Source: a virus (taxonomy: Duplodnaviria; Caudoviricetes). Taken from it: 64,000 nucleotides of DNA. Under the pieces are notes generated by a model. The model ran no database searches and was not told the DNA's origin. It saw nothing but the letters and a program-made list of their open reading frames with translations. The position numbers were made by a program, and so were the translations under genes. Shown here one piece after another: positions 42,857-57,588 of the stretch. The DNA lies in IMG/VR virus record IMGVR_UViG_3300036944_001066, positions 391 through 64,390 of that record. One strand, written 5' to 3'. Positions within the stretch are counted from its first letter, which is position 1; the number at the start of each line of letters is the position of its first letter.

Positions 42857-45800
42857 TCAGTCGTAGATCCGTTCTGACAAGGCGCCGCGCAAGCGCTCGC
42901 CCAGCAGTTCGTTGCGAATGAGCGTTCCCTGCTCATCGCGGTTCGCCGAGTTCTTCATGCGCGTCTTGACCGAGCGCTTCAGCGTGTCCGGCTTGATCGG
43001 CACCGCCTGGTGCAGCGGAACGTCATTCCACTTGTCGATTGCCTTCGTTGCCTTGTCGATCTCCGCGTCTTCGCCCTCGATGACGGACATTGCCCACTTC
43101 GTGACCAGGCGCTGGCGCTCGCGCATGATGCGGGTTTCCGCGTTCTTCAGCGCCGTGTTGCGGTCCCACGTCTCGGCCACAGACGCCGGCGTAAACCCGA
43201 GCGCCTGCGCGACGATGCCATGAACCCCGATCTGATCGGCCGTCATGACGGTGGTGCCGTCAAACGACGTCAGCCCCTCGCTTGCGTAGCGGTAGGACTT
43301 CATCAGATCGCGAACAACTTTCGGAGCCGCCGTCTCGATACCGCGCGCTACCTCACCATCCATTACAAGGTTGAAGCCGTTATAGAGGTTTTCACCAAGG
43401 CCAACGGTGGCGCCGAGCGACTGCGAAAGCCAATACTGATACTCATCCTTGCCCTGCAGTTCGCGGTTCGGCGAGCGGAACCACAGATCCGGCATGCCGA
43501 TGCGCGTCGTGAGGTCGATCCCGAGATAATGGCCGGGCACGCCATTGAGCACCACCCCGCCAAGTTCCGGGCCGAGGATGTTGACCATGTCCGTGCGAAA
43601 CGCCTGCTCAAAGCCCAGCGGGTCATCATCCTCGTCGCCGAAGATCAGGCCAGCAACCATCATCGCGAGATTGAAGCCGGCAACACCCGACACGCCGGCA
43701 AACAGCGCCTGCATCCCGACGACGCCGGCCAGCTGGTACCGGGCTTCCTTGCGGGCCGCCGGGGTCTCGCCTTTCAACGACTGATGAATGTCGCGGAACA
43801 TGCGGTAGAGCATGTTGACGTTGTAGTTTCGGAACACCAGCGCGACCTTGGCAATATCGTTCTGCATGATCGCCGGCCGCGACGAGTTCGAATAATCGAA
43901 ATGTGTTTTCCACGTCAGGTCATGGGCCGTATCGATGGCGGCCAGATGGTCCTGTCCGGATCCGCGCGCCATGCGATAGGCGGCGAGCGCCGTGACTTCG
44001 CGGTTCCATACCTCGGCACGATGGAACGCCCAGGAGATGACGCCCATGACGCGGGCGCGCAGCGGGCTGTAATTGACGCCAGTGTCACCGACGCCGGCCA
44101 ACTCATGGCTTTGCGTGCGGTCGATCAGGCCACTGTCATAGAATGCCTGGATTGCGTCCTTCTCCTCGCGGGAGAGGTTGGCATTCGTGATGCTGCCCCT
44201 GCCCTTGACGCTGTCCATCGACGCCTTCATCAGCGCTTGCCCTGCCATCTTCATCCCGCCGAACCGGCCGGCGAGGATCGGCATACCCATCATGACTGTC
44301 TGCGTCATATTGAGCGCGGCCGAGGCAGGGGATGCGGCGAGGAACCACACGAAGGCGGCGCTTGTGAGCACCTGCGCGGCTTTGCCGCCCGTTGGGTTCA
44401 TCACCCAGTCGTGACGCTTGGCAAGCTCATTCGACAACGTCATGCCGCGCGTCGGGTCATCCGCTTCACGTGCCTGATCGCGGGCTTGTTGCACCAGTTC
44501 CTGCAATTCGAGGCCATACTTGACCTTCGCCATCTGGTGGGCGGCATGGAACATGTGCGACGAGAACACGCGCAGCGCATCCCGGTTGAAGCCGGCCGTT
44601 CCCTTGCGGTGGATGAAACGCTTGCGGGTCGAAAGATCCGGCATGGTTTCGAGATACCGCTGCCAGATCATGTCCATGACTTCGCTATCGACGCCGGCAC
44701 CGCCAAGAATCGTCTCGATCTCGGCCACCATGCGTGGGTCCATGGAGTTGCGAAGGTCTGCCCCCTCCTCCATCACACCCTTTTCGACCGTGCCGCCCGG
44801 ATACTCGCGGCCGACTTCAGACGCGAAGCGGTCACGATCAGCAGCCTTCTCAAACTTCGAGAACGTCAGCACCGAACCATCGACGTCACGCACGGTGACG
44901 AAATACCGACCAAACCGGCCGAGCGGGAAGTATGGCGCCGGCACGCGGCTGCTTTCGAATGCGATCCGCAGCTTCGTCATCCGGGCCTTGGCCGCCCATG
45001 AAGATTTGGTGGTCTCTGCCTGGTATGCGCTTTTGGCGTCTTCTTCTGCCTTGCGGCGCAGATCCATGGCAAGGCCGGCATCGCGGATCTGCTCGAGCGA
45101 TTTCTTATACCGGCGCTCCGCCTGCTCACGTGCGATCTCCTGCGCCTTGCGCACGTTGTCCAGCAGGATCTCATCCAGTTCGGCCGCCTGCGCGCTATAG
45201 GCATTACGGACCTTATTATAAAGCTCGCGTCCGGCCGGCGGCAGGGCGAGGTAGCGCTGGCGAAGGGCGGCATAATGGCCCTTGGCCTTCTCCTCATCTT
45301 CCGTGCTCGACGGATCAACACCAAAGATGGTGCTGTCGTGCATCAGATCCGAGAGGGCCTGCGCCTTCGCCTTGTCGCGCGAGGCAAATCCCAGGCGGGT
45401 GAACTTGAGCCACTGTCCGGCGATCTCGTCGGCATCGGCGTGCTTCTGACCACGGAAGGCGTCCATGAGCCGCTTCACGCGCAGATATTCGCCGACGGCC
45501 ACCATGTTTGGCCGCGCCAATTCGGTGAAATAGTTGAGGGGGATCGTTTTCAGGACTGCCGGCGTGAGGTCCGTCAGCCGGCCGCTCAGTTCACGGGTAA
45601 TCCGTTCCCGATTGACCGTTCGGCGCTTTTCAGGCGAATAGTCTCGCGCGCCTGCTTCAGCAAGTCCGCCCGATTTGGGATTCGCGCCGACATCGCCTCG
45701 ACCTGCGACAGCCATTCCTTCCATTTCTGCAATGTGTCGAACGGGCTTGGCGGATCGATAAATCCCGGCATCAGCAGTTTTTGCTGTTGTGTCATTGAAA

Positions 45801-48800
45801 ACTGCCCCTTCAAGGCGTTTTGCAGCCTCATTGATCTTCGCGTCCATGCCGGGCACGCTGGCGAAATCATATGACTGGTTGGTGAAATAAGCAATGATGC
45901 CTGCTCGCTGTGCGACTTCTTGGATAGCGTAGCCGTGCGCCTCATCTGCCACGGACGCCACAGTGTTGCCGTTGTTGACCTGGCGCTGCAGAAATTCGGT
46001 CATAAACTGGCTGATTTTCGCCAAAGCACTTGTCATGTCTGCAAGTCTGTAGATCTGCGTGCCGGTATCATCCGAGAACTTGGCTCGCCATGCCTTCATC
46101 CTGTCGGTTGGCTCGTAACGGGTGTTGCGGCCACCTGCTCCAATAGCCCACGTGGCATGGAGACCTGGCATCACAGAGAATGCAATGTCGGCGCCACTCA
46201 GCGGGCTATTCCGCGGATGGTTGTGGAATATCACGATCTGCCGATCCGGGTTACTCATGGCCGAGGCGAGCTTGTTGCTCATCCCTGTCATGCTTGGCCT
46301 TCCGGCGGTGCCATACTCGACCACGGCGCCATCATCATCGATCGCCACCAGATGCTCATTCCCGGATTTAAGGCCCGGCTCCGAGACGACACGGAACGCC
46401 CACTGCATCAGGCTTTCTTCGGCATTTCGCGGCGGTACCGGCAATGAGCGCAAATCCTGCGTGGACTTCACCACCGGATCCGGGCGCTTATCGGCCTTGG
46501 CTGGCAGAACGTCGGCATCCGCCGGCGCAGCGACTGGCGCGGTGCCGGGCTTCTTTGGCTTCAGGGCATCGAGCAACGCGCGGTGCTTGGTCGCCGTCTC
46601 TTCCAGTTCGGCTGCGTTCGGCCACGGGCCGATCTGCTTTGCGATCAACGGGATCTGCTCTTGCACATCCGCTGCCCGCGCCTCGTCGCTGGCCGGCAAC
46701 TTTGTCAGCCTGCGCACCTGATTGGTGATCGACATGGCAAGGCCGGTCGGGTCTTGCTGGCCGACGTCCTCGATCGTCAGATGGTAGGAGCGCGCGCCTT
46801 TGATTTCGACGTCGAACTTTGCCTCGTACATGTGATCCATGCGGATCGTGAAATCGCCGTACTTGCCGACGGTTTCCGCGCCGCCCATGCCATCGACAAT
46901 GCCCTTGCGCATCCGGGCCAGCAGTGCGGCACCGAACTCTTTCGGTTTCTCAAAGGTCTCGCCATCGACGATGGCTTTGAACGGCTGGTCGGCCAGCTTT
47001 TCGGCGTTGGCCGCATCGGTGCGCTCACCCGGCAGGCGGGCGTTGATGGCCTCGATCTCCTCACGTGCCTGGCGGATCTTGTCGCGGATCCGGTGCTGGT
47101 TGCGGTTATGCTCAGAGGCTTGGCCTTCCAGCGTCCGCAGCTTGCGCCGTGTTTCCATCTCTTCCAGGATCAGCGGGTTACCGGATGCCGCGGCCTTCAT
47201 TTCGGCAGCATTGGCCGCTTCGCCGGCAATGTCCTCGATCTGGCGCGTTTTTACGTCGCCCTTGCGCACCTGCCCGATGAAACGGGCTTTTGCCTCGATG
47301 CCCTGCCACTGACGCGCATCGAGCGTGTTCTTCGTGGCATAGCGAAGGATTTCGACCTCGAAGCCGTTTGGATCTTCGTCGTAAAGCTCATTGCCCTGCC
47401 GGATGATGCGCCCGTCGCGCTGCTCAAGGTCAGATGGCCGCCACGGCGCATCGAGATGGTGCAGCGCCACAAGGCGGTTCTGCACGTTGGTGCCAGCGCC
47501 CATCTTGGCGGTGCTGCCGAACAGGAAGCGGGTCCGGCCCGAGCGAACCTTGCCGAAAAGTTCTTCCTTCTGGATCTCCGTGTTGGCGTCGTGGATAAAC
47601 GCGATCTCATCGGCCGGCACGCCGCGGTCAATCAGCTTTTGCCGCAGATCGTCATAGACCGAGAATTTCGACGTAAGAGCAAGGAACTCGTCGGGGCTCA
47701 TGGCGTCGAGCTTTTCCTGCGCCGCCTCGTCGCCCTCCTCCGCCTTGCGCATCAGGTCACGCAGTTCGCTTTCCTGCTTCGCCTTGGCTTTCTTGGGCGT
47801 GGACAGGTCGATGAACACCAGCTGCGCGCCGCGCTTGTCGCTCCACTTGTCGTAGATGCGCTTCATCTCGTCGGCCGCACGGCTGACTTTGCTATCCGGA
47901 TTGTCGGCATAGGCGGGATCGATCAGGCGCATGTCGAGCGCCGCCTTGCGGGCGTCCGACATCACTTTCAGCATGTTGTCGGCGCCCTTCTCTGCCTTCT
48001 TCGGCAGATGCTCAGCGCGATAGACCAACGATCCTTCCGGGAACTGCATCTCGCCGTTGGCATCCATTCGGCCCTCGCCGATGAATGCCGCCTGGTCCTG
48101 CGAACGCTCGACGGTGATGTTGTTGGGCTTGCCGCCCATGACCTTCGGCAATGGCAACGTCTTGCCCTGCGCGGCAAGCTGCGCCTTGATGTCGTCGTTC
48201 GAAATGACGTCGGCAAAGCCGAGATACATCTTCATCAGTTCGGGGATGTTCACGAACTTGGCGAAGCGCGTGTTGAGCTTGTACTGGCCGCTCGGGCTCA
48301 GTTCCCAGTCGGTGACAGCCTCACCGAACACACGTGCCCATGCGTCGAAGTGCGACAGGCCAAGGTTCCCGAGGCGCTTTTTGTCGAGATAGCGCTGCAC
48401 TGTGTACATTTCTGCCATCGTGTTCGACAGCGGAGTGCCGGTGGCCACGACGATGTTGCCGCCGGTTCGATCGAGAACGTTCTGGATCTTGATGAACATG
48501 TCGGTGGCTTTTTTGCTGCCAGTTGGGTTCCCGAGGCCGGCGACACGCTGCATGCCGGTGACAAACGGCAGGTTCTTGAACTCGTGGAACTCGTCGACAT
48601 AGAGCGCATCGACGCCGAGATCATCGAAATACAGCCCGTCATCCTTGCGGCCGGCGTCGAGGAGCCCCTTGATCTTGCTTTCAAGGTTCTGCCGCTGCTT
48701 CGCCAGCTGCGCCACGTTGCGCGACTTCTCGCCCGTTTCCCTGCGCATGTCTGTAATGGACTGCTCAAGGTCGCCGATCTGCTGCTGGATGAACGCGGCT

Positions 48801-51800
48801 TCGGTCTCAGGCGTGACGCCAATCAGGCCGAATTGCGAGTGAGCGACGATCACAACATCCCAGTCACCGGTCGCCACGCGGGCGAACAGGCGCTTGCGGT
48901 TCTGCTTCTCGAAGTCGCGTTTGGTCGGGGCCAGAACCTTTGCGCCCGGGTAGAGCTTCTGGAAGTCGGCGGCCCACTGTCCGACAAGATGGTTCGGCAC
49001 AGTGAGGACAGGCTTCTTTGCCTGCCCGGTACGGCGCTTCTCCATGATGGACGCGATCAGGGCGAATGTCTTGCCTGCACCGACGGTATGGTCCGCCAGC
49101 GCGACAGATGACTGAAGCGTGCGCCAGACAAACGATTTCTGGTGCGGGCGCAGCGTTACGATGTCGTCGCCGACCTTGCCCGGCAACGACAGGTGCGCGC
49201 CGTCATAGACGCGGATGACGTCGGTGTTGAAAGTATCGTTATAGAGCCGAGCCAGTTCGACGCGGCGTGCATCGTCCTGCCAAAGCCAGCGGTTCCACTC
49301 TTCCTTGACGCGCGAGACCTTCTCGTTGGCGGCCTCCGTTGCCGCCTGGTCGATCACGTCTTTGCCTTCGGCATCCTTCGTGTAGACCTGCGCCGACTTG
49401 CCGTTGATCGCAGCGTTGACGATCTGGCTCACCGATGCCCGTCCGGTAGCCCACATGGCATCAGATGCCGGCGTCGAGCGGGGCACGTCCAGCACCCAGA
49501 TGCCGTTGCCCCTGGAGTAAACCGCGCGTGCGCCTTTGCTCCCGGTGATGTGCTCGATGAAGTCGCCGACGTGCTTCGGCGGCACCCAGGGCGAACCCGC
49601 CTTCACATCGATGTCGATTGCCTCGATATCTTCCGGCTGCACATCCCGCAGGGCAGCAACGTTGCGACGGAATGTCGGGTCAGAGACGGCGGCACGCTCG
49701 GCCTCGGCCAGCTTTTGCTTAACGTTTCCGGACAGGTAGGCGTCGGCCGTTTCATAAGTGCCGGCCGGCGTCTGATAGAGAAGCGAACCCAGCTCATCGA
49801 CGATGGCGTCGGCAGGCTTGCCGTACAGCCGCGACATTTCATCAAGGTCAACACGGCCACGGTCATTTAGCACCTGCGCCAGCGCATCTTTCGCCGATGC
49901 GGCCGAGGTCGGGCGCTGATACGGTTGCTGGGTGCGCTTGGTGAAGATTGGAGCCTTGTCGGCCTTCGGCGGGCGGGCCTTCTCGCCCGTCTTCTTGGCG
50001 ACTTCGGCGGAAATGCCCTTGTCGTAATTGTTTTCCAGCGCCGAAATCTGCGGCCACGTCGGATCGTCGCGGAACAGGCGCTTGTTGGCGTCGTGGTTGA
50101 TCGGCCCGTTCTTGCCAACGAAGGCGTCATATGCCTTGTTCAGCCGCTCGCGCAGGTTCTCGATCTGCTTATCGGTCGCTGTGTCGCTGATCTGCGCACG
50201 ACGGAGGCGCGCGAACCCATCACGGACGCGCACCATTCCCTCGACACGTTCTTTGGCCTTGTCGCTGGCGAACGCCACCGGCTTTGACTGGGGCGTGCCC
50301 AGGCTATCGGCGATGCGCTCATGGACCGTGCCATCCGACGACAGGAACATCGAGCCAACGGATGCAGCCTCGACGCCATCGACGACGGTTTCGGTCGGGC
50401 GCATTTCCACGCCCGGCTCCGGCATCAAATCCTTGGGCAACGTCGCGATTGCAGCGCGCAGTTCCGCTGGCAGATCCTGCCCCTCGCGCGCGACAAGCGC
50501 GGGCTCATCCGGGCCGTACATCGTGCCATAGGCGCCGAAATCGCCCAGCATCATGCCGGGGTTGGCAATGAAGTAGCGGTTGAGCGGAACCGTCTTGCCG
50601 TCTTTGCCGCGGTAGTCGGCCACATCCACCCACGCGCGATCGCCCGGGCCGTCTTCTGCCGTGCGCTTGCGCAGGATGACGATATCCGTGGTCACTTCGG
50701 TGCCGGCGTTCTTCAGAAACGCATTGTTAGGCAACCGGATTGCGCCGACGAGGTCCGCCTGATTGGCAATCATCGTGCGCGCAGCGGCATTGTTGCCGTC
50801 GAGGAAGCGGTTTGTCACCACCATTGCCAGCACGCCGCCGGGGCGCAGCGCCTCAACAGCCTTGGCAAAGAAGAAATTGTGGATCGAAAGCTTGTTGAGG
50901 TGGCGACGGTTCTTGTCGTACAGCCGCTCGGAGCCGAAAGGCGGGTTGCCAATGACCAGGTCGAAATAGTCGTTCGGCACCACAAGCGTCTCGAATCCCA
51001 TCGGCGCCTGAATATTGGTCGCGGGGTAAAGGTTCTTGGCGATGCCGCCCGTGATGTGGTCAAGCTCGACGCCGGTCACATGCGATCCGGATTTCGCGCC
51101 AGCCGGCATCATGCCGATGAAGTTGCCGGCGCCGACCGACGGTTCAAGCACCTGCCCGCCCTTGAAACCAAGCTGCTGCGCGACGTTCCAGACGGCATCG
51201 ACGATTTCGGGCGAGGTGTAATGCGCGTTGCGTGTCGAGGATTCGGCCGCACGGTATTCTTCCGGCGTCAGCAATGCCTTCAACTCGGCGGCCTGCTTCT
51301 CCCAGCCCTTGTTCGCTGATCCGTCATCACGGAAGAACGCGGCACGGAGGCCGCCCCAGCCTACCCACTTCGCAAGCACCGCCTGCTCTTCGCGGGTGGC
51401 CGGCCGGTTCTCATCGGCAAGCGTGCGCAAAACCTTGATGGCCGCGACGTTGCCAGCGAACTTGGCCTTCGATCCGCCTTGGCCGATCTGGTCGCCATCC
51501 GTGATGGCATAGTCGGCCGGCAGGTTCTGCGCCGGCGTGGCTGCGCTCTCGACGCCCTTGAGGGCATCAAGCGACGACTGAGGGGCTACTCGGCGTCCAT
51601 CGACCGTTGGCCGGCCCGCATTGCGTCCATCATCGCCGCGCTGATCGACGTCGGGCTCTGCGGCTGCGTTCCTTCCGGTGGCGGGAACAGATACTCCTCC
51701 CGCGTCATCTGCCACGCCTCGTCCGGACTGAACCCGCTCTGCTCCAGCGCGTCCGTCTCCCGAAACGTCATCTCGGCCGCCTGCTGCAGGGCGCTCTCCA

Positions 51801-54800
51801 ACTGCCCGGCGTCCTTCAGCGCCTGGTACCGCGTCGGCTGGAATTCCTTCCAGTGCTGGCGCGCCTGGCTGATCCAGTTCTGCAGGTTCATCTGCGGTCT
51901 CCTTACCAATCGCGTTGACATCGGCGCTATCCACCTCGGCCGCGCTCGACATGCCGTCAAAGCCAGTAGCGCGAGGATCATATTTCACACCCATATACCA
52001 TGATTTCAGGTATGGGCGCGCTACCTCGCCGAGGTCACCGATCATCGCGGAGGCGTAGGCGGCAAACGTGCGTGCGCCCTTCTCGATGTGGTAGCCGGCA
52101 AGCGTGATACCAGCCTGCATGATCTCTGGATCGATACCGCTATTAAGCTGATTGAGTTTGGAGCGCAGCAACGCACGGGCCTTATCGGCCGCGCTTTCCG
52201 TAAAGATCTTGTTCTCGCTGACGGCCGGCGCGGCCTTCACCGCCGCCTGCTTCTCCGGGACCAGGTTTGTCTTTTCCCATGCGGACAGTTCGCGGTCCGT
52301 GGGGATGGACGAATGGGTGCGCTCGCGATCAAGCGAACCGTCCTTCTTGACCTCGGCAACTGTCACGGTCCATTCGGTCCCGTTGCGGTTGAAGCTGATC
52401 ACGCGATCTTTGCCGCCGCCATAAGCATCGACGTCTCGGCCCGGCTGAAAATAATTCTCGTAGCGGTCCACGCGCTGCGCTTGCGTCAACGGTTTGGGAC
52501 GTGGTGCGGCTGACGGCTTCGCAACAGATGCCGGTGCCGGGGCAGTTTTCTCCACCGACGGCTTCGCTGCGGCAACCGGCCGAGCCGTCTCCGCCTCGTA
52601 GATCTGCATCGCCGATTGATAAACATCATCCGCCTGCGAAGCACGGACCTTGAGACCGGCGCCATCGCGCGCACCGATGTAACCCATCAGGTACGGCTCG
52701 ATCGGGTCCGTCGTGCCACCGTGCGGTGCGGGCTTCGTTGGCGGCTTGCCTTCCTTCTGATCGAGCCAGCCGGCAATCATCTGGTATGCGACCGAGCTTT
52801 CGCGGTGCGGATCCATCGGCTTGATTTCGGCGCGGAACTTGCGGAATGCCGGCGTGGCCCAAACGGCTTTCACCTCATCGTCCGTCACCTGACGCATGCG
52901 CGCCTTGTCCTGATCCGGCACGCCGGCGCTGCGCTCGCTGAATCGCTTTGCCGTGTTGCCGGTCTCAAGCCACTGCTTGAATTCGCCCAGCGTCGTTTCC
53001 GTCACCGGACCCAGCTTCCAGCCGTCGCTGTAGTTGTCGAGATAGCCCTGTTCTGCCTCGGCCTGTGCGTTGAAGCCGAGCATCACCTTGTGCTCATCCC
53101 ACTTGCCATCGGGGCCGACTTGGTCGACCACGAAAACCGGCGCGGCATCAGTCAGCGTCTCTGTGCCTGGCTTCACGAACACGTCGATGTGGTCTTTGTC
53201 GCGGCCCACGGTGCCCTTGATGTAGCCATAATGGCTTTGCATCCGCACCGACCACTGCTTGCCGCCCTTGTCCACGCCCTTGCGATCGGAGCCGGCCGGG
53301 TTCTCGATCGAGATGTCGAGCCCGCCAATGCGCGCATGGCCGAGCTTGTAGTTGCCGGCTTCCTTCTGCGCCTGCGTCGGCTCCGGCCGCTCGTTCTCCG
53401 GCGACGTTGCGGCTTCTTTGGCTGCTTGGTCGACGGTAAGTGCAACGTCGCCAGCCTCGCGCAGGTAGTTGATCCCTTCCCGAACCGCAGCATTGCGGAC
53501 AGCCTGCAAGGTTGCTTGCGCAGCGGGTGAAATTGGCCCGCCAGCGTCTGCGCCAATCTGGTCCCCGTAGCTGGAAAGCTTGACGTAACCGTGATTTTCA
53601 ACTGGAATAAGGTCCGCCTCAAATAGGCGGCCAAGGAATTCAGCGTGATCACCGGACGGATTGCTGGTGGGCTTCAAGACGTAAAGCTTTCCATCTGGCT
53701 CGATGATTGCGGCTTCTTCGCGCCGAGGGTGCTCAACAATCCTGCGAACATATTCGATAGGCGACATGCGTTCGCCCATTTCTTTGTAGATGGCCGTCAA
53801 TTTTTGTTTGGTATTCTGCGCCGGCTTTGCAGCTTCCGCTGTCTGAATGTCCGTGATGGAGTTGCCGGCATGCATCCGCGCAAACGCGGTATAGCCGGGG
53901 ATGTCGTTGACCTCATTCCAAAGTTCAAGCGGATAGCTGCCGATCTTGGCAACATCGGTAAACGGGATATCCCGCGAGCCGGGAGCGATGCCCCAGCGGT
54001 TTTCCTTTGCGTTCCATGTGACCAACGATGCGGTGTTGCCGCGAATGACGACGCGCGAGCCCTTCTCGCCAACGCCGCTCAGACCGGCAGAACTCAGAAC
54101 GCTGGCGTTTGTGTCGAGGAAGATTGTGCGCGCGCTGCGAGGCTTTAGCCCCTTGTCGCCTTCATGGCCCGGATCGGCACGTTCGGCCTTTACGCGCGTC
54201 GTGGTGCCGTCCGCATGCAAGGTGTAGCGGCTACCTTTCGCAGTCGTGAAAGTCTGCTCGCCGCCGCTCGCCGAATCCTCCTGCACCGCGCCGCCATTAC
54301 GTACCGCGTCGATCTTGGCGCGGATAGCGGGCGTGAACGTGCCCCACATCGCGTTTTCGCTGCGCTTGACGCCTGCCTCGTCGAGGATGCGCTTGCGCTC
54401 CGGTGCCGTCAGTTCGGCATCCCACCACATTTCGTTGCCGACCGTGTTCGTCGTATCTGCGTCGGCCTTGGACCGCTCAAGCTGCCACTGCTTCAGCCGG
54501 CGCTCGTTGACCGGTGCAATGCGCTGCGGCAGATCAGATCCAGCCGTCTTTGCCGCACGCTGCGCGCGGTACCGATAATCATCGGCCATGCTGCCGAGCG
54601 CCTGCGGCGTCACCTTGAAGGCATCGGCCAGCGCTTTGTGTTCCGGCACGTCAACCGAGCCAAGATCCAACTGCGACGAACCGCTTGCCTTGGAGATCGC
54701 CCGATTAAGGCCGAGATCGAAAAGCCTTGCGTGGTTTTCGTCCGGCATGACAAGCGTCTTGCCCATGACTTTGCGCATGGTCGGCCCGGCAACAGCGGCC

Positions 54801-57514
54801 TTCTCTTCGGTGCGGTCCACCGGCGGCACGCGCCGCGCATCTTCTGCCGCCACCTGCTTTGGCGTCTGCTTGTTGACCTTCAGGCTTTCGAGCGGAACCT
54901 GGTACGACTTGCCGTCATCGGCGCGCACGACGGCGTCCGTGCCGTCCCACGTTTCAACGGTACCGGCAAACCGGCCGGCCTTCTCGTCGTTGACGATGAT
55001 GCGCTGGCCCGGCGGTGGTGCGCTGGGGAAGCGCATGTTGGCTTCCATGTCCTGCGATGCGGGCGCCAGTCCCTCATTGGTCACCGTTGCAGAAACCGGT
55101 GCTGCCGGCTCCAACGCCGGATCGGTCGAAAACTCGGGCAGGCTATCGCCAATCGGGATTGGCCCGGTTTCGGGCGGGTTATCGGCCGCGATCTTCTCCG
55201 GCGAATCCGCAATCTTCGACAGGTTGGCGAGCGGGATCTGGTAGACCTCGCCAGTGCCGCTATCGACGATGACAGCTTCATCGCCTTCGTAACTGTCCAC
55301 GCGACCCATGAAAGGCTCAATGCCATCCGCATCGACGCGCACCGTGGCGCCGACTTCCGGTGCGCCATCTGGCATCGCTGCGGCGGCCGGCATTGCCACC
55401 GGCACCGCTGCTGCGGCGCGTGCCGCCTGCTGCTCTGCCGCATGCTGGGTGGCTCTGCCAATCGGCCCGCTTGCCGTTGTCTGCACCGTGGGTGCGGCTG
55501 GTGCGCCTGCATCTGCCGGCATCGCCTCGCCTTCGGCTCTCGGCCTGGCTGCACCACCGACGCCGCCGAGCGTGCCGCCCATGGCTCCACCACCGGCAAG
55601 GCCAGACGCAACCGCCTCGCCGACGCCTTCCGTAATCTGCTGATCCGGGTTCACCCGCTGCACGCCGGCATTCTCGGCCATCGTCTGCAGCGCGCTCTGC
55701 GGCGCCTCTTCAAGCACGCCCTCGCCGATCATGCCGCGCACCGTACCTGCCAGCACACGCTTTGCCACGTTGCCGCCGACACCCTCGGCGAGGATCTTTG
55801 CCAGCGCACGATCGCCCATGCCGCCGAACATGCCGGTGGCAACGCCTGCCATGAGGAACGACTGCGTTGCTGCGTCCTCGGTCACTGCCTTGATTGCCTC
55901 TTCCTGGCTCATGCCGCCATCGACGAGTGCCTTGACGGCATCGCTTTCGGCCAGTTGGTCCGGCGCAATCTGCCCGATCCGGTCGCGCACGTTCTTCGCA
56001 GCGTCCGCACCGCCCAGGATGCCTTCCGAGATCGCGCCGGCAACCGTGGCCGTGCGTGCGGCGACTGCTGCGGCCTGCACCTGCGATCCGGTTGCCGCCA
56101 TGGTGCGCAGATACGCGCCACGCGCCAGAATGCCGCCGGGGAGCATCGTCACCAGTGTGCTTGGCGCACTTTCGCCCACCACGCGCAGATAGCTGCGAGG
56201 ATCGCGCCACGCCGGGCCAAACCGCTTGTTGTCGGCGTCCCACCAGTTTTTGGCGTCCGCATCCTGCTGTGCCTGCGTCACCGACGCATTGGCCTGCGTC
56301 TGGCTCTGCGACAGGCGCTGATCCAGCGTCTTGCCCATCGCCCAACGGTCAATATCGTCGGATGCCTGCAGGAACGCCTCCCCGCCTGGCAGTTTGCGGA
56401 ACACGGTGTCAGCGAGCGAAGACAGGGACTGCCCAAGGCCGATGGTGCCGGACTTGAGGATGCGTCCGGTATCGCCGAACACGCCACCGGAACGGTTCTC
56501 CTCTTCCCACTTCTGCTGCCAGTCGCCCAACTGCGATTCCGCGATGGTCTCGTAACGGCCCGGATCTTTCGCCTCGAGCGCTTCGACGCGCTGCGCGGCC
56601 TCCGCATTGTGCTGCTCATTGAGCGCGTTGATGCGATTGGTTTCCGACTGCGTTGCCGCTGCCTCTGCGGCGGCCTCGATCTGCGCGCGCCGCTGCTTGG
56701 CCATGTCGTCGAACGGATTTCCGCCGGCCATCAGCCCCATGGGGTCCGAAGCCTTGAAATTCTCGTCGACCACGATCGAGTTACCAGACGCGCTGGCCGA
56801 GACCGGGCCAAGTGGCGCACGTTCAACGCGGCCCAAGGCGCGATTGAACTTTTCGCCATAGGCGCCAATGCTGGTTCCCAAAGAATCCTTGCGCTCTGTC
56901 TTGCCAACGCCCCCAGCTCCGCCAAACCATGCCTGCGCAGCGCCCTCCGGTCCAAAGCGTGCCACGTATTTTCCGAACTGATGGTCGAAAACGGCATCTT
57001 GAATATCGGGATTTGCAAGAAACTCTTCTGCGGTTACCTCTCGCCCAATTGCCGCCTTGGACCACGGGCCAACATTGGCTTCCATGACCTGGTACCGGCC
57101 GAGAGCATACCCCATAGAACGATGTTTCGGCCCGATTGCAGAGTAGTCTCCGCTCCCTTTGCTTTCGATCGATGCGATAGCCTCACGATAGGCTGGCATT
57201 TCAGGGAACTGCGGCGTGAACACCTCTTTGCGCGCTGGCTTGGGCGCATATGTGCCATCGCGCAGCACGGCTGCGAACGGATCAGCGCCCTCATCGCCGA
57301 GACCGGGCATTTCTGCAATCCGGCTGGTTTTTTCCGCGCGCGGTGCCTTGGTCACATACGGGTCGCGATAGCTGCTTTCGGACTTGGCTGCAGGTGCATC
57401 CGCCTTCTCCGCCGGCGTTGCCTCAACCGGCTTCTCGGCCGCTGCGCTCGGCTTCCCGCCATAGATGTTGAGCGGGTCATTCCAGTCGCCGTCGAGGCCG
57501 AGGATAACAGGCAT
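42857..57514 (-). CDS. Giant DarB-like polyvalent virion protein (~4885 aa)
   Basis: Lysozyme-like (IASIES, GRYQVM), InPase-like (HYGYIKGT..RDKDHIDVFV), N6-MTase (LEPSVGAG, NPPF), SNF2 (VGAGKT, DEFH, PWRPSDLEQRDGR), HNHP domain, YFPLGRFG; RBS GGAG. Confidence 0.93.
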   Translation of the reverse strand: MPVILGLDGDWNDPLNIYGGKPSAAAEKPVEATPAEKADAPAAKSESSYRDPYVTKAPRAEKTSRIAEMPGLGDEGADPFAAVLRDGTYAPKPARKEVFTPQFPEMPAYREAIASIESKGSGDYSAIGPKHRSMGYALGRYQVMEANVGPWSKAAIGREVTAEEFLANPDIQDAVFDHQFGKYVARFGPEGAAQAWFGGAGGVGKTERKDSLGTSIGAYGEKFNRALGRVERAPLGPVSASASGNSIVVDENFKASDPMGLMAGGNPFDDMAKQRRAQIEAAAEAAATQSETNRINALNEQHNAEAAQRVEALEAKDPGRYETIAESQLGDWQQKWEEENRSGGVFGDTGRILKSGTIGLGQSLSSLADTVFRKLPGGEAFLQASDDIDRWAMGKTLDQRLSQSQTQANASVTQAQQDADAKNWWDADNKRFGPAWRDPRSYLRVVGESAPSTLVTMLPGGILARGAYLRTMAATGSQVQAAAVAARTATVAGAISEGILGGADAAKNVRDRIGQIAPDQLAESDAVKALVDGGMSQEEAIKAVTEDAATQSFLMAGVATGMFGGMGDRALAKILAEGVGGNVAKRVLAGTVRGMIGEGVLEEAPQSALQTMAENAGVQRVNPDQQITEGVGEAVASGLAGGGAMGGTLGGVGGAARPRAEGEAMPADAGAPAAPTVQTTASGPIGRATQHAAEQQAARAAAAVPVAMPAAAAMPDGAPEVGATVRVDADGIEPFMGRVDSYEGDEAVIVDSGTGEVYQIPLANLSKIADSPEKIAADNPPETGPIPIGDSLPEFSTDPALEPAAPVSATVTNEGLAPASQDMEANMRFPSAPPPGQRIIVNDEKAGRFAGTVETWDGTDAVVRADDGKSYQVPLESLKVNKQTPKQVAAEDARRVPPVDRTEEKAAVAGPTMRKVMGKTLVMPDENHARLFDLGLNRAISKASGSSQLDLGSVDVPEHKALADAFKVTPQALGSMADDYRYRAQRAAKTAGSDLPQRIAPVNERRLKQWQLERSKADADTTNTVGNEMWWDAELTAPERKRILDEAGVKRSENAMWGTFTPAIRAKIDAVRNGGAVQEDSASGGEQTFTTAKGSRYTLHADGTTTRVKAERADPGHEGDKGLKPRSARTIFLDTNASVLSSAGLSGVGEKGSRVVIRGNTASLVTWNAKENRWGIAPGSRDIPFTDVAKIGSYPLELWNEVNDIPGYTAFARMHAGNSITDIQTAEAAKPAQNTKQKLTAIYKEMGERMSPIEYVRRIVEHPRREEAAIIEPDGKLYVLKPTSNPSGDHAEFLGRLFEADLIPVENHGYVKLSSYGDQIGADAGGPISPAAQATLQAVRNAAVREGINYLREAGDVALTVDQAAKEAATSPENERPEPTQAQKEAGNYKLGHARIGGLDISIENPAGSDRKGVDKGGKQWSVRMQSHYGYIKGTVGRDKDHIDVFVKPGTETLTDAAPVFVVDQVGPDGKWDEHKVMLGFNAQAEAEQGYLDNYSDGWKLGPVTETTLGEFKQWLETGNTAKRFSERSAGVPDQDKARMRQVTDDEVKAVWATPAFRKFRAEIKPMDPHRESSVAYQMIAGWLDQKEGKPPTKPAPHGGTTDPIEPYLMGYIGARDGAGLKVRASQADDVYQSAMQIYEAETARPVAAAKPSVEKTAPAPASVAKPSAAPRPKPLTQAQRVDRYENYFQPGRDVDAYGGGKDRVISFNRNGTEWTVTVAEVKKDGSLDRERTHSSIPTDRELSAWEKTNLVPEKQAAVKAAPAVSENKIFTESAADKARALLRSKLNQLNSGIDPEIMQAGITLAGYHIEKGARTFAAYASAMIGDLGEVARPYLKSWYMGVKYDPRATGFDGMSSAAEVDSADVNAIGKETADEPAELDQPGAPALEGIPADAVPGAEGRRAVGERPAAGGRDDVSGDGRAGAERVQSGRGVADDAGGVSVPATGRNAAAEPDVDQRGDDGRNAGRPTVDGRRVAPQSSLDALKGVESAATPAQNLPADYAITDGDQIGQGGSKAKFAGNVAAIKVLRTLADENRPATREEQAVLAKWVGWGGLRAAFFRDDGSANKGWEKQAAELKALLTPEEYRAAESSTRNAHYTSPEIVDAVWNVAQQLGFKGGQVLEPSVGAGNFIGMMPAGAKSGSHVTGVELDHITGGIAKNLYPATNIQAPMGFETLVVPNDYFDLVIGNPPFGSERLYDKNRRHLNKLSIHNFFFAKAVEALRPGGVLAMVVTNRFLDGNNAAARTMIANQADLVGAIRLPNNAFLKNAGTEVTTDIVILRKRTAEDGPGDRAWVDVADYRGKDGKTVPLNRYFIANPGMMLGDFGAYGTMYGPDEPALVAREGQDLPAELRAAIATLPKDLMPEPGVEMRPTETVVDGVEAASVGSMFLSSDGTVHERIADSLGTPQSKPVAFASDKAKERVEGMVRVRDGFARLRRAQISDTATDKQIENLRERLNKAYDAFVGKNGPINHDANKRLFRDDPTWPQISALENNYDKGISAEVAKKTGEKARPPKADKAPIFTKRTQQPYQRPTSAASAKDALAQVLNDRGRVDLDEMSRLYGKPADAIVDELGSLLYQTPAGTYETADAYLSGNVKQKLAEAERAAVSDPTFRRNVAALRDVQPEDIEAIDIDVKAGSPWVPPKHVGDFIEHITGSKGARAVYSRGNGIWVLDVPRSTPASDAMWATGRASVSQIVNAAINGKSAQVYTKDAEGKDVIDQAATEAANEKVSRVKEEWNRWLWQDDARRVELARLYNDTFNTDVIRVYDGAHLSLPGKVGDDIVTLRPHQKSFVWRTLQSSVALADHTVGAGKTFALIASIMEKRRTGQAKKPVLTVPNHLVGQWAADFQKLYPGAKVLAPTKRDFEKQNRKRLFARVATGDWDVVIVAHSQFGLIGVTPETEAAFIQQQIGDLEQSITDMRRETGEKSRNVAQLAKQRQNLESKIKGLLDAGRKDDGLYFDDLGVDALYVDEFHEFKNLPFVTGMQRVAGLGNPTGSKKATDMFIKIQNVLDRTGGNIVVATGTPLSNTMAEMYTVQRYLDKKRLGNLGLSHFDAWARVFGEAVTDWELSPSGQYKLNTRFAKFVNIPELMKMYLGFADVISNDDIKAQLAAQGKTLPLPKVMGGKPNNITVERSQDQAAFIGEGRMDANGEMQFPEGSLVYRAEHLPKKAEKGADNMLKVMSDARKAALDMRLIDPAYADNPDSKVSRAADEMKRIYDKWSDKRGAQLVFIDLSTPKKAKAKQESELRDLMRKAEEGDEAAQEKLDAMSPDEFLALTSKFSVYDDLRQKLIDRGVPADEIAFIHDANTEIQKEELFGKVRSGRTRFLFGSTAKMGAGTNVQNRLVALHHLDAPWRPSDLEQRDGRIIRQGNELYDEDPNGFEVEILRYATKNTLDARQWQGIEAKARFIGQVRKGDVKTRQIEDIAGEAANAAEMKAAASGNPLILEEMETRRKLRTLEGQASEHNRNQHRIRDKIRQAREEIEAINARLPGERTDAANAEKLADQPFKAIVDGETFEKPKEFGAALLARMRKGIVDGMGGAETVGKYGDFTIRMDHMYEAKFDVEIKGARSYHLTIEDVGQQDPTGLAMSITNQVRRLTKLPASDEARAADVQEQIPLIAKQIGPWPNAAELEETATKHRALLDALKPKKPGTAPVAAPADADVLPAKADKRPDPVVKSTQDLRSLPVPPRNAEESLMQWAFRVVSEPGLKSGNEHLVAIDDDGAVVEYGTAGRPSMTGMSNKLASAMSNPDRQIVIFHNHPRNSPLSGADIAFSVMPGLHATWAIGAGGRNTRYEPTDRMKAWRAKFSDDTGTQIYRLADMTSALAKISQFMTEFLQRQVNNGNTVASVADEAHGYAIQEVAQRAGIIAYFTNQSYDFASVPGMDAKINEAAKRLEGAVFNDTTAKTADAGIYRSAKPVRHIAEMEGMAVAGRGDVGANPKSGGLAEAGARDYSPEKRRTVNRERITRELSGRLTDLTPAVLKTIPLNYFTELARPNMVAVGEYLRVKRLMDAFRGQKHADADEIAGQWLKFTRLGFASRDKAKAQALSDLMHDSTIFGVDPSSTEDEEKAKGHYAALRQRYLALPPAGRELYNKVRNAYSAQAAELDEILLDNVRKAQEIAREQAERRYKKSLEQIRDAGLAMDLRRKAEEDAKSAYQAETTKSSWAAKARMTKLRIAFESSRVPAPYFPLGRFGRYFVTVRDVDGSVLTFSKFEKAADRDRFASEVGREYPGGTVEKGVMEEGADLRNSMDPRMVAEIETILGGAGVDSEVMDMIWQRYLETMPDLSTRKRFIHRKGTAGFNRDALRVFSSHMFHAAHQMAKVKYGLELQELVQQARDQAREADDPTRGMTLSNELAKRHDWVMNPTGGKAAQVLTSAAFVWFLAASPASAALNMTQTVMMGMPILAGRFGGMKMAGQALMKASMDSVKGRGSITNANLSREEKDAIQAFYDSGLIDRTQSHELAGVGDTGVNYSPLRARVMGVISWAFHRAEVWNREVTALAAYRMARGSGQDHLAAIDTAHDLTWKTHFDYSNSSRPAIMQNDIAKVALVFRNYNVNMLYRMFRDIHQSLKGETPAARKEARYQLAGVVGMQALFAGVSGVAGFNLAMMVAGLIFGDEDDDPLGFEQAFRTDMVNILGPELGGVVLNGVPGHYLGIDLTTRIGMPDLWFRSPNRELQGKDEYQYWLSQSLGATVGLGENLYNGFNLVMDGEVARGIETAAPKVVRDLMKSYRYASEGLTSFDGTTVMTADQIGVHGIVAQALGFTPASVAETWDRNTALKNAETRIMRERQRLVTKWAMSVIEGEDAEIDKATKAIDKWNDVPLHQAVPIKPDTLKRSVKTRMKNSANRDEQGTLIRNELLGERLRGALSERIYD
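45586..45795 (-). CDS. Nested 69-aa gene in the +1 frame of the giant gene
   Basis: RBS AAGGGG; PPSPFDTLQKWKEWLSQVEAM amphipathic helix. Confidence 0.55.
   Translation of the reverse strand: MTQQQKLLMPGFIDPPSPFDTLQKWKEWLSQVEAMSARIPNRADLLKQARETIRLKSAERSIGNGLPVN
51586..51891 (-). CDS. Nested 101-aa gene (TnpV-like) in the +1 frame of the giant gene
   Basis: RBS AAGGAG 7 nt upstream; ARQHWKEFQPTRYQALKDAGQLESAL...EAWQMTREEYL. Confidence 0.65.
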   Translation of the reverse strand: MNLQNWISQARQHWKEFQPTRYQALKDAGQLESALQQAAEMTFRETDALEQSGFSPDEAWQMTREEYLFPPPEGTQPQSPTSISAAMMDAMRAGQRSMDAE

Positions 57515-57541
57515 GGGTGTGGCTCCGGTTGAATTGGAGCC

Positions 57542-57554
57542 GCACGTCCTGCGC
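57542..57554 (-). promoter_or_regulatory. Late-leader GGA hairpin GCGC-AGGAC-GTGC
   Basis: TATAAA at 57573-57568; 27 nt before ATG 57514. Confidence 0.75.
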
Positions 57555-57588
57555 GACAAGTGCATGATTTATAGATGGCGGCGGGGCA

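Follow-up and report, generated by a model that had tools for sequence, protein, structure and literature searches.

A small gene, distantly like TnpV, very probably embedded in the +1 frame of a giant DarB-like phage gene

Introduction

When two reading frames on the same strand are open over the same nucleotides, one may ask whether both are translated and, if so, which of the two is the older. This question is raised by a locus in a 64,000-nucleotide stretch of DNA from a tailed virus (IMG/VR record IMGVR_UViG_3300036944_001066, positions 391 to 64,390), here called the window. The record comprises 64,390 bases, of which the window contains all but 390; it is rated complete by CheckV, and is described as a complete, 64-kb, podophage-like genome. 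The largest gene in the window encodes a DarB-like polyvalent protein of 4,902 amino acids (aa), and inside this gene lies a second, much shorter open reading frame (ORF) on the same strand.

The analysis points to a true gene within a gene. The giant gene, which belongs to the DarB-like virion-protein genes, very probably contains a gene of about 100 codons for an acidic four-helix protein with a distant likeness to TnpV, and both frames are kept open by selection. The most probable account is that the linker of the giant protein is an out-of-frame reading of an old small gene, which is itself still translated.

Results

An embedded ORF with its own start signals

The embedded ORF, whose product is called P0001, lies wholly inside the giant ORF and on the same strand, in a different frame. 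The two start positions differ by 57565 − 51891 = 5674 nucleotides (nt), and as 5674 mod 3 = 1, the small ORF is in the +1 frame of the giant one (Table 1). A preliminary description of the window, made from its letters, had reported a same-strand, +1-frame ORF of 101 aa with AAGGAG placed 7 nt before its ATG, and every element of this description is present in the sequence. The length of the ORF proves nothing by itself, because same-strand ORFs of 60-211 aa in alternative frames are common inside the giant gene, where the GC content is 62%.

Consider instead the GC content at the first, second and third codon positions. Over the whole giant gene these values are 0.656, 0.464 and 0.747. Over the overlap they are 0.912, 0.634 and 0.465 in the giant frame and 0.627, 0.465 and 0.911 in the +1 frame, which means that the pattern is abnormal in the giant frame and normal in the +1 frame, so that the coding signature jumps to the +1 frame exactly there. 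In the giant frame the overlap reads ...ADEPAELDQPGAPALEGIPADAVPGAEGRR..., with 19 Gly, 18 Ala, 13 Asp and 13 Arg among 102 residues. The earlier reading of this segment as low-complexity read-through of a real gene in another frame thus agrees with both its composition and its codon signature, and the segment, rich in Gly, Ala, Arg and Asp, would act as a spacer that separates the N-terminal half of the giant protein from the half with methyltransferase (MTase) and helicase.

Table 1. Positions of the embedded gene, of the parts of the giant gene around it, and of corresponding genes in other records
Feature	Sequence	Position	Strand	Remarks
Giant DarB-like polyvalent gene, 4,902 aa	window	42857..57565	(-)	largest gene in window; ORF and Pfam
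Conserved helical domain of giant protein, residues 1785-1878	window	51932..52213	(-)	contains '..GIDPE..YHIEKGARTF..PYLKSWY'; directly upstream of embedded gene
Shine-Dalgarno-like AAGGAG	window	51904-51899	(-)	7-nt spacer ACCGCAG, then ATG
ATG start of embedded gene	window	51889..51891	(-)	letters read GAT-GAA (Asp-Glu) in giant frame
Embedded +1-frame gene, 101 codons and stop	window	51586..51891	(-)	product P0001 (101 aa); ATG at 51891, TAG at 51588-51586
Giant frame over overlap, ~residues 1892-1993	window	51585..51892	(-)	stop-free Gly/Ala/Arg/Asp-rich linker
N6-adenine MTase region, residues 2014-2448	window	50222..51526	(-)	conserved N-terminus begins ~20 codons past stop of embedded gene
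Counterpart ORF in Bcep22	L122	1711-2031		counterpart ORFs in L122-L124 are 90-107 codons from ATG
Counterpart ORF in Ralstonia phage Gerry	L123	1708-2028
Counterpart ORF in Pseudomonas phage 8P	L124	1711-1980
DUF1896 gene, Bacteroides phage BKO1-TP4	L129	1148-1597		overlaps methylase start by 14 nt
DUF1896 gene, B. fragilis plasmid NZ_OR675140.1	L133	1114-1566		overlaps methylase start by 11 nt
DUF1896 gene, contig MT835707.1	MT835707.1			5 nt from MTase match

Both frames stay open in distant relatives

A search with P0001 of a set of 5.8 billion proteins gave 11 proteins of 73-113 aa at 55-68% identity, and tblastn with the same query gave 21 phage records, corresponding to 12 phage names (Atu_ph08, PBC5, VvAW1, POI1126, PEp14, Pavtok, Stean, LASTA, SJM3, SopranoGao, Mwe-JY07 and Itty13), together with one plasmid record from Brucella pseudintermedia. 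Ten phage stretches were fetched, and in nine of them the giant frame is free of stops over 3.2-3.3 kb, while the +1 frame is rich in stops save for a gap of 107-176 codons at the match. The embedded start reads ATGAACCT in eight of these nine; in POI1126 it reads ATGGAAGCC. The alignment of 14 sequences (A1) then led to 58 loci from IMG/VR and 53 loci from species-representative genomes, which are distributed over Alpha-, Beta- and Gammaproteobacteria, Chlorobiota, Planctomycetota, Marinimicrobia, Thermodesulfobacteriota and Verrucomicrobiota. The embedded ORF is conserved at 33-68% aa identity across the three proteobacterial classes, Chlorobiota, Planctomycetota and Verrucomicrobiota. When 1.84 billion cluster representatives were searched with a profile, 1,142 clusters matched at E ≤ 1e-3, of which 366 also matched at E ≤ 1e-10; the majority are 75-130 aa long and are matched from residue 1. 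Homologues, for which the preliminary description had recommended a search, are thus found across phyla.

A census of the nucleotide context was made over 122 stretches (121 loci and the window), of which 107 remain when stretches that agree in the first 180 nt of the match are counted once. In 78 loci, one of which (L116) is cut at its 5' end, the frame around the small ORF continues without a stop in both directions for 400 codons or more, or as far as the locus extends. In another ten, here called the Verrucomicrobiota type, the giant frame begins fewer than 400 codons upstream and extends far downstream. In one locus, PBC5, the small ORF shares its frame with the N-terminal half; ten have a giant frame that is open over the ORF and short on both sides; and the remaining eight have a giant-frame stop inside the ORF and are stand-alone genes. 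Over the ORF, both frames are free of stop codons in 99 of the 107 distinct loci.

From the position of the small ORF relative to the start of the giant coding sequence (CDS), the +1 phase was confirmed in eight records: Atu_ph08, VvAW1, PEp14, LASTA, Bcep22, Gerry, 8P and JC1, the last of these from the coordinates of gp69 in a table of PMC9144972. In the five loci of the Verrucomicrobiota type that were examined, the MTase-helicase gene is separate and the N-terminal half is not fused to it. Here too the small ORF lies in the +1 frame within the 5' end of the MTase-helicase gene, the first ATG of which is about 35-110 nt upstream of the small gene's start. The open stretch also persists at low GC content: an Acinetobacter locus (L096, GC 0.38) and VvAW1 keep 79-114 open codons amid an otherwise stop-rich +1 frame.

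Amino acid selection acts mainly on the small frame

If the small frame encodes a protein, its third codon positions should vary most, also where the giant frame runs through the same nucleotides. The set used for this comparison consists of 87 loci in which the giant frame is open from −1200 to +1500; three without the HW anchor were dropped, and de-duplication of the remaining 84 at less than 90% nt identity left 57. For the entropy test the alignments were anchored on the small-protein motif. In the core of the overlap the entropy at codon positions 1, 2 and 3 of the small frame is 0.869, 0.823 and 1.151 (57 loci). The corresponding values for the giant frame are 0.663, 0.566 and 1.310 in the upstream helical domain (25 loci) and 0.838, 0.731 and 1.472 at the N-terminus of the MTase (57 loci). 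The wobble position of the giant frame is thus the most variable position in both flanks and the least variable in the overlap. Over the overlap the mean pairwise aa identity is 0.515 in the small frame versus 0.355 in the giant frame. The comparison across loci indicates that purifying selection at the amino acid level is acting on the embedded frame.

The giant frame is constrained in another way. When the small gene was resampled synonymously with the codon usage of each locus's own flanks, a mean of 3.4 giant-frame stops per locus was obtained versus zero observed. An open giant frame had been a condition for entry into this set; without that condition, the count is the 99 of 107 given above. 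With about 3.4 stops expected and the frame open in 99 of 107 loci, it follows that the openness is selected. At the same time the third position of the small frame is tighter than a normal wobble position (1.15 versus 1.31-1.47), and this reduced freedom fits a second, weaker constraint imposed by the giant frame. Judged from these patterns, amino acid selection over the overlap is acting mainly on the small frame, and the main constraint on the giant frame is stop avoidance.

Start codons and Shine-Dalgarno motifs

The small frame may be entered by independent initiation or by a ribosome that shifts out of the giant frame. Independent initiation predicts a start codon at the N-terminal edge of the homology and a Shine-Dalgarno (SD) motif ahead of it, and a +1 frameshift would need neither. 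A start codon at that edge is found in all 57 non-redundant loci (ATG in 53, GTG in 4), and one of GGAG, GAGG or AGGA occurs at −16 to −5 in 54 of the 57, to be compared with a background of 0.109 at any position and of 0.088 (229 of 2,588) before other ATGs in the +1 frame. In eight of the 57 loci there is, in addition, a small-frame stop at most two codons ahead of the start, and because of this stop there is no room for entry by frameshift in those eight. The pattern of starts and SD motifs is therefore the one that independent initiation predicts.

Fold and family of the small protein

An AlphaFold2 model of P0001 made from the 14-row alignment A1 has a mean predicted local distance difference test (pLDDT) score of 79.6, with about 90 over residues 1-70, and consists of four predicted helices followed by an acidic tail of low confidence. 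The isoelectric point (pI) of P0001 is 4.57; the median over 121 relatives is 4.93. The invariant or nearly invariant residues include H13, W14, P19, G29, L31, A38, T42, G53, A59, W60 and R64. In length (101 aa), in its four confidently predicted helices and in its occurrence in a complete phage genome, which is a mobile element, P0001 corresponds to what has been described for TnpV-type proteins, and 33 of the 121 relatives match the TnpV profile (PF14198) at E ≤ 0.01, the best at 4.5e-6, over profile positions ~16-86 of 111. In the ESM Atlas, unnamed clusters of ~100 aa are listed first; at rank 30 stands a Verrucomicrobiota cluster with a TnpV share of 11%. A search of the window's own genome with the TnpV model gave no match, and as control genomes were equally blank, this is uninformative.

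Comparison of the model with known structures gives one candidate. Foldseek found no match in the PDB at E ≤ 0.001 and, in BFVD, only a fragment of PBC5 orf33 (Q8W6J4_2); a profile search of PDB sequences (E ≤ 1) returned nothing relevant, 2apl not among the hits, and one chance row at E 0.94. In an exhaustive VIA search of 48,161 chains the top match is PG0816 of Porphyromonas gingivalis (2apl), with Z 7.9 and a root-mean-square deviation of 2.0 Å over 64 residues (residues 1-72 of the model), a Z that helical bundles can reach through their common arrangement; the next match has Z 5.4, and Foldseek gives 2apl an E of 2.4 and a probability of 0.63. The protein in 2apl is of the DUF1896 family, and gp2 of Bacteroides phage BKO1-TP4, annotated as DUF1896, matches it at E 2.6e-34. 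A link of moderate strength between the modelled fold and DUF1896 is thereby suggested.

The label "endolysin", which P0001 receives through PHROG 938, was rejected. Only the last 100 columns of that profile align (positions 2084-2183 of 2185), as in the 2,185-aa PBC5 orf33, and the label is irrelevant to P0001.

The giant protein

The Pfam matches of the giant protein include LPD39 (4.5e-60), InPase (1.1e-52), Eco57I/N6_Mtase and SNF2-rel/ResIII/Helicase_C, with the N6_Mtase and Eco57I matches at residues 2113-2307. It joins an N6-adenine MTase and an SNF2/DEAD helicase in one chain with polyvalent-protein domains, which is the DarB-like arrangement; its MTase region is 53-70% identical to homologues annotated as DarB-like, and homologues of the gene in phage records carry the annotation "DarB-like antirestriction". 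A tblastn search with the MTase region matched 122 phage records, P1 darB among them. The labels for a lytic-transglycosylase-like N-terminus and a PLxRFG region come from reading of the sequence and from annotations of related phages, with no Pfam match here. Pfam comparison of the conserved helical domain upstream of the embedded gene (29 members) gave no consistent family. The neighbouring genes match PHROG families for major head, internal virion, virion structural, tail fibre and endolysin proteins.

At residues ~3690-3720 the giant protein contains '..FHNHPRNSPLSGADI..', where Pfam finds no match; we take this segment to resemble a metal-binding motif of the JAB/RadC type.

Passages of two papers describe homologues of the giant gene as virion-packaged anti-restriction proteins (PMC6630229, PMC9144972), and according to the latter the 4,515-aa homologue of phage JC1 (gp69) was identified as one virion protein by mass spectrometry, with 51 unique peptides. 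By analogy with these relatives, on which the papers report, the giant protein of the window may likewise be packaged and protect against restriction.

Counterparts in Bcep22-like and Ralstonia phages

Bcep22, Ralstonia phage Gerry and Pseudomonas phage 8P each have a +1-frame ORF of 104-137 codons whose end coincides with the beginning of the MTase match or falls shortly before it. Similarity of the Bcep22 ORF to the family profile is weak (E 4e-4, in a small database), as is that to TnpV (E 0.045), and tblastn finds ORFs of its type in 41 records (10 Burkholderia and 31 Ralstonia), in all of them unannotated under a giant CDS. Judged by position and similarity, a diverged counterpart thus occupies this place in the Bcep22-like and Ralstonia phages.

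Genomic context of the small gene

Within giant proteins the small ORF is always found between the conserved helical domain and the MTase domain, and its place directly 5' of the MTase domain is kept in three gene architectures. The helical domain and the TnpV-like domain also occur fused in frame, in one order in P0047, P0132 and P0148 and in the other in P0029, P0135 and P0164. In three of six loci of Bacteroidota type examined, the gene directly 5' of a DarB-like or N6-MTase gene encodes a DUF1896 protein (Table 1). A complex prediction for the small protein with the upstream helical domain (alignments A2 and A5) scored 0.01 and 0.01 versus a mark of 0.32, which gives no support for a contact between them and is no evidence either way.

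In the Bacteroides phage and in the B. fragilis plasmid the order of genes is topoisomerase III, DUF1896, and DarB-like or N-6 DNA methylase.

Discussion

How the overlap may have arisen

The preliminary description had regarded the small gene as overprinted on the giant one. The direction is probably the reverse: the small frame appears to be the older of the two, because it has a normal codon signature and belongs to a large family with stand-alone members, and because the giant frame is of low complexity there, so that the linker of the giant protein looks like an overprint on an older small gene. To see how such a state could have been reached, consider as starting point two neighbouring genes that barely overlap, as DUF1896 and MTase genes do in Bacteroidota. 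The downstream MTase-helicase gene would then have been extended in the 5' direction across the small gene, which is the state in Verrucomicrobiota, and would subsequently have been fused to an upstream virion-protein gene, as in the proteobacterial podophages, whereby the small gene, read out of frame, would have become a linker. PBC5 would in this series be a secondarily split or fused variant. In the present state the small protein would be made by independent initiation at its own SD sequence and ATG on the giant mRNA, and ribosomes that are already on the giant gene would read through in frame 0. The overlap would guarantee that the small protein is inherited and transcribed together with the MTase-helicase module.

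Alternative readings of the two frames

That the ORF is a chance open frame in GC-rich DNA and encodes no protein has next to no probability. It is true that alternative-frame ORFs of comparable size are common inside the gene and that P0001 itself has no match in Pfam or NCBIfam; a chance frame would, however, neither be conserved in its amino acids across six bacterial classes and phyla nor persist at low GC, and it would explain neither why the third position of the +1 frame becomes the most variable one within the overlap nor why a fold is confidently predicted. By these comparative data the chance reading is already refuted. It is somewhat more probable, and still highly improbable, that the 4,902-codon ORF is not one chain, and that it consists of a gene for the N-terminal half, the small gene and an MTase-helicase gene, with the giant frame across the small gene unused. 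PBC5 is split in just this way, loci of the Verrucomicrobiota type have a separate MTase-helicase gene, and the codon signature of the giant-frame segment is atypical. An unused frame would nevertheless not be expected to stay free of stops in 99 of 107 loci when some 3.4 per locus are predicted; moreover, reading of the window finds no ATG, GTG or TTG in the giant frame between the stop of the small gene and the N-terminus of the MTase from which a third gene could begin, and the JC1 homologue was, as noted, reported as a single virion protein (PMC9144972).

A programmed +1 ribosomal frameshift is the most probable of these three alternatives, though improbable too. It would yield a truncated product of ~2,000 aa, consisting of the N-terminal half and the TnpV-like domain, beside the full-length giant protein, and no free small protein. 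Such a product exists in frame: in PBC5 an 8-nt insertion ~40 nt before the ATG brings the N-terminal half in frame with the TnpV-like domain, and the fusion is annotated as GenBank orf33 (2,185 aa) and RefSeq PBC5_gp22, both of which end at the stop of the small gene. The position of the domain at the very end of PHROG 938 and the metagenomic proteins P0047, P0132 and P0148, in which it stands at the end after the upstream helical domain, are of the same kind. From PBC5 and the metagenomic fusions it follows that the fused form is viable and that a frameshift product is possible in other phages. A frameshift needs neither a start codon at the homology boundary nor an SD-like motif, both of which are present in (nearly) all of the 57 loci, and in the eight loci with a small-frame stop just before the start there is almost nowhere to shift; nor was a slippery motif conserved across lineages seen upstream, and Verrucomicrobiota-type loci keep the ORF without any fused N-terminal half. 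A search for longer in-frame fusions in the set of 5.8 billion proteins turned up only P0164, which is weak evidence.

The insertion in PBC5 (a Sinorhizobium phage; L009/L128), by which the giant gene is split, is seen relative to Atu_ph08, the window and two other loci, and may be either real or a sequencing artefact. The MTase-helicase half of PBC5 is without an obvious start, and GenBank orf23 begins downstream of the start of MTase homology.

What the small protein may do

The preliminary description had proposed a dedicated partner or inhibitor of the MTase-SNF2 module; the constant place 5' of the MTase domain speaks for such a role, and stand-alone relatives with no MTase nearby speak against it. 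On function the evidence is that of genomic context, and here we tentatively prefer an accessory partner of the MTase-helicase module, possibly a cofactor of its assembly or packaging or a regulator. The main rival is an independent effector, that is, a small acidic protein with a role in anti-defence, as a DNA mimic or as a regulator, which merely rides inside the giant gene; we regard it as unlikely, though by no means negligible. Its acidity would suit an effector, 70% of the 121 relatives having a pI below 5.5; its stand-alone relatives occur in islands with helicases, an AAA_5 ATPase or an integrase and with no MTase; and some of these relatives (P0072, P0025, P0041 and P0019) have hydrophobic, apparently membrane-spanning C-terminal tails, as read by eye. 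A passenger would, on the other hand, hardly be held directly 5' of the MTase domain in three architectures, or be fused in both orders to the very helical domain that precedes it in the giant protein, and a DUF1896 gene stands in the analogous place in half of the loci examined. These points are why the accessory partner is preferred.

A more far-reaching proposal, which we consider doubtful, is that helical proteins like TnpV and DUF1896 are an obligatory and unrecognised small subunit of DarB-type MTase-helicases across phyla, the counterpart of a helper seemingly lacking in the PBC5- and Bcep22-like phages without DarA, and that the virion protein of 4,900 residues was created when the older small gene was read out of frame as a linker that welds two large proteins together. 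If this were true, a structured cofactor and the disordered tether of its client would both be encoded in the same nucleotides.

Observations that weigh against the interpretation

Against the gene within a gene, its family assignment and its proposed role stand the following observations. The loci are phylogenetically related, so that the counts given above are not counts of independent events, and an in-frame fused form, with the domain at the C-terminal end of the N-terminal half, exists in PBC5 and in a few metagenomic proteins. P0001 matches nothing in Pfam (E ≤ 1) or NCBIfam, and the gathering cut-off of TnpV, 27 bits, is reached by none of the 121 relatives, the best relative listed with a score being P0099 at 26.0 bits. 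Of the likeness to TnpV proposed earlier, a distant resemblance therefore stands, and membership in the family does not. The Z of 7.9 to 2apl, found in a helical bundle, can reflect a common arrangement, and hhalign of the family alignment A2 against a 5-row DUF1896 alignment gives a probability of 1.8% (E 0.027), a comparison of the family with a single DUF1896 sequence being likewise non-significant. Three of the six DUF1896 loci, all on plasmids, are without an annotated adjoining MTase, a count that is not firm as the PLSDB gene tables are incomplete; stand-alone TnpV-like genes adjoin unrelated helicases, an AAA_5 ATPase or an integrase with no MTase nearby; and no such +1 ORF precedes the MTase in P1 darB, in a low-GC fecal phage contig or in a Streptococcus phage.

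Relation to known systems

The nearest known case is Rz/Rz1 of lambdoid and Bcep22-like phages, named as embedded genes of the same phage group in a passage of the JC1 paper (PMC9144972). In both cases one whole phage gene is contained in another, read from the same strand with a +1 offset and provided with a start signal of its own, and both products are needed from the same DNA. Unlike in Rz/Rz1, the host gene here is that of a virion protein of 4,900 codons and the overlap coincides with a linker between domains; the embedded frame seems to be the older one and is widely distributed; and the embedded product is, by its model, a soluble helical protein and not a lipoprotein. The kind of arrangement is thus known. 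What is new is that the host gene encodes a giant polyvalent protein, that the embedded frame appears to be the older one, and that the host frame contributes only a linker.

TnpV (PF14198) is a small protein of Tn4451-type clostridial transposons, for which we know of no established function. It resembles the small protein in size, in being helical and in being borne by a mobile element; unlike TnpV, the small protein is embedded in a phage MTase-helicase gene, and all scores are below 27 bits. DUF1896, represented by PG0816, is the best structural match to the model and has its gene 5' of an MTase gene in three of six loci; it differs from the embedded protein in its length of ~150 aa with an extra C-terminal half, in being encoded by a separate gene and in having no significant profile similarity. 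P1 DarB shares the MTase-helicase core with the giant gene (32.8% identity over query residues 110-299) and lacks, unlike the giant gene, a +1 ORF before the MTase domain. The helpers of P1 DarB are given as DarA, Hdf, DdrA and DdrB in passages of PMC9144972 and PMC6630229, and according to parts of the same two papers Bcep22- and PBC5-like phages have no DarA homologue.

The small gene is listed in none of the phage-record annotations inspected: most have only the giant CDS over the ORF, PBC5 has it fused to the upstream half, and Itty13 has only CDSs on the opposite strand. Some pipelines call it as a "hypothetical protein" in metagenome-assembled genomes. Literature searches, with term searches of PMC5512222 and of the JC1, Atu_ph08 and LASTA papers (PMC10052179, PMC6630229 and PMC9144972) among them, gave no published description of the embedded gene, and an earlier mention is possible; in the polyvalent-protein survey PMC5512222 the term search finds no occurrence of TnpV, DUF1896, overlapping, Bcep22 or PBC5.

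Because the small ORF is unannotated, at least 62 phage records, 21 with the family proper and 41 of the Bcep22 type, have proteomes that lack a conserved protein; among them are Klebsiella, Burkholderia, Ralstonia, Erwinia and Agrobacterium phages studied for biocontrol or therapy. The polarity of the overprinting would be unusual, with the structured and widespread protein in the embedded frame and the disordered newcomer in the host frame, and the locus would be a concrete example of a giant polyvalent protein assembled by reading through an intervening gene. It also offers a testable candidate for a cofactor of DarB-like anti-restriction enzymes. The genetic handle is clean, because mutations that are silent in one frame can be knock-outs in the other.

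Further observations

The longest of the alternative-frame ORFs in the giant gene, with 211 codons (55710-56345, minus strand), is in the +2 frame in the most GC-rich (0.68-0.70), Ala/Gly-rich part of the gene, and is taken as a chance ORF.

In Pseudidiomarina sediminum (L099, 2971-3759) a gene for a TnpV-like domain with a hydrophobic tail is followed by a 198-aa ORF and a gene for an AAA_5 (McrB-like) ATPase.

In the record of Itty13 (L007, NC_070969.1 5596-8823) two CDSs annotated "hypothetical protein" lie opposite a frame without stops along all 3.2 kb of the stretch. This frame encodes a DarB-like MTase region with 56% identity to that of the window, and the giant gene seems to have been missed or placed on the wrong strand in the annotation.

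Four loci of GC 0.42-0.47 (L082, L097, L034 and L107) have no long giant ORF. The frame one base behind the small ORF is stop-free throughout it in L034, L097 and L107, with 157-245 codons open; in L082 the same frame is open for 111 codons over nearly all of the small ORF, with a stop just inside its 5' end. Such openness is surprising at this GC content, and these loci may be recent remnants of the giant arrangement, or a two-frame module in its own right.

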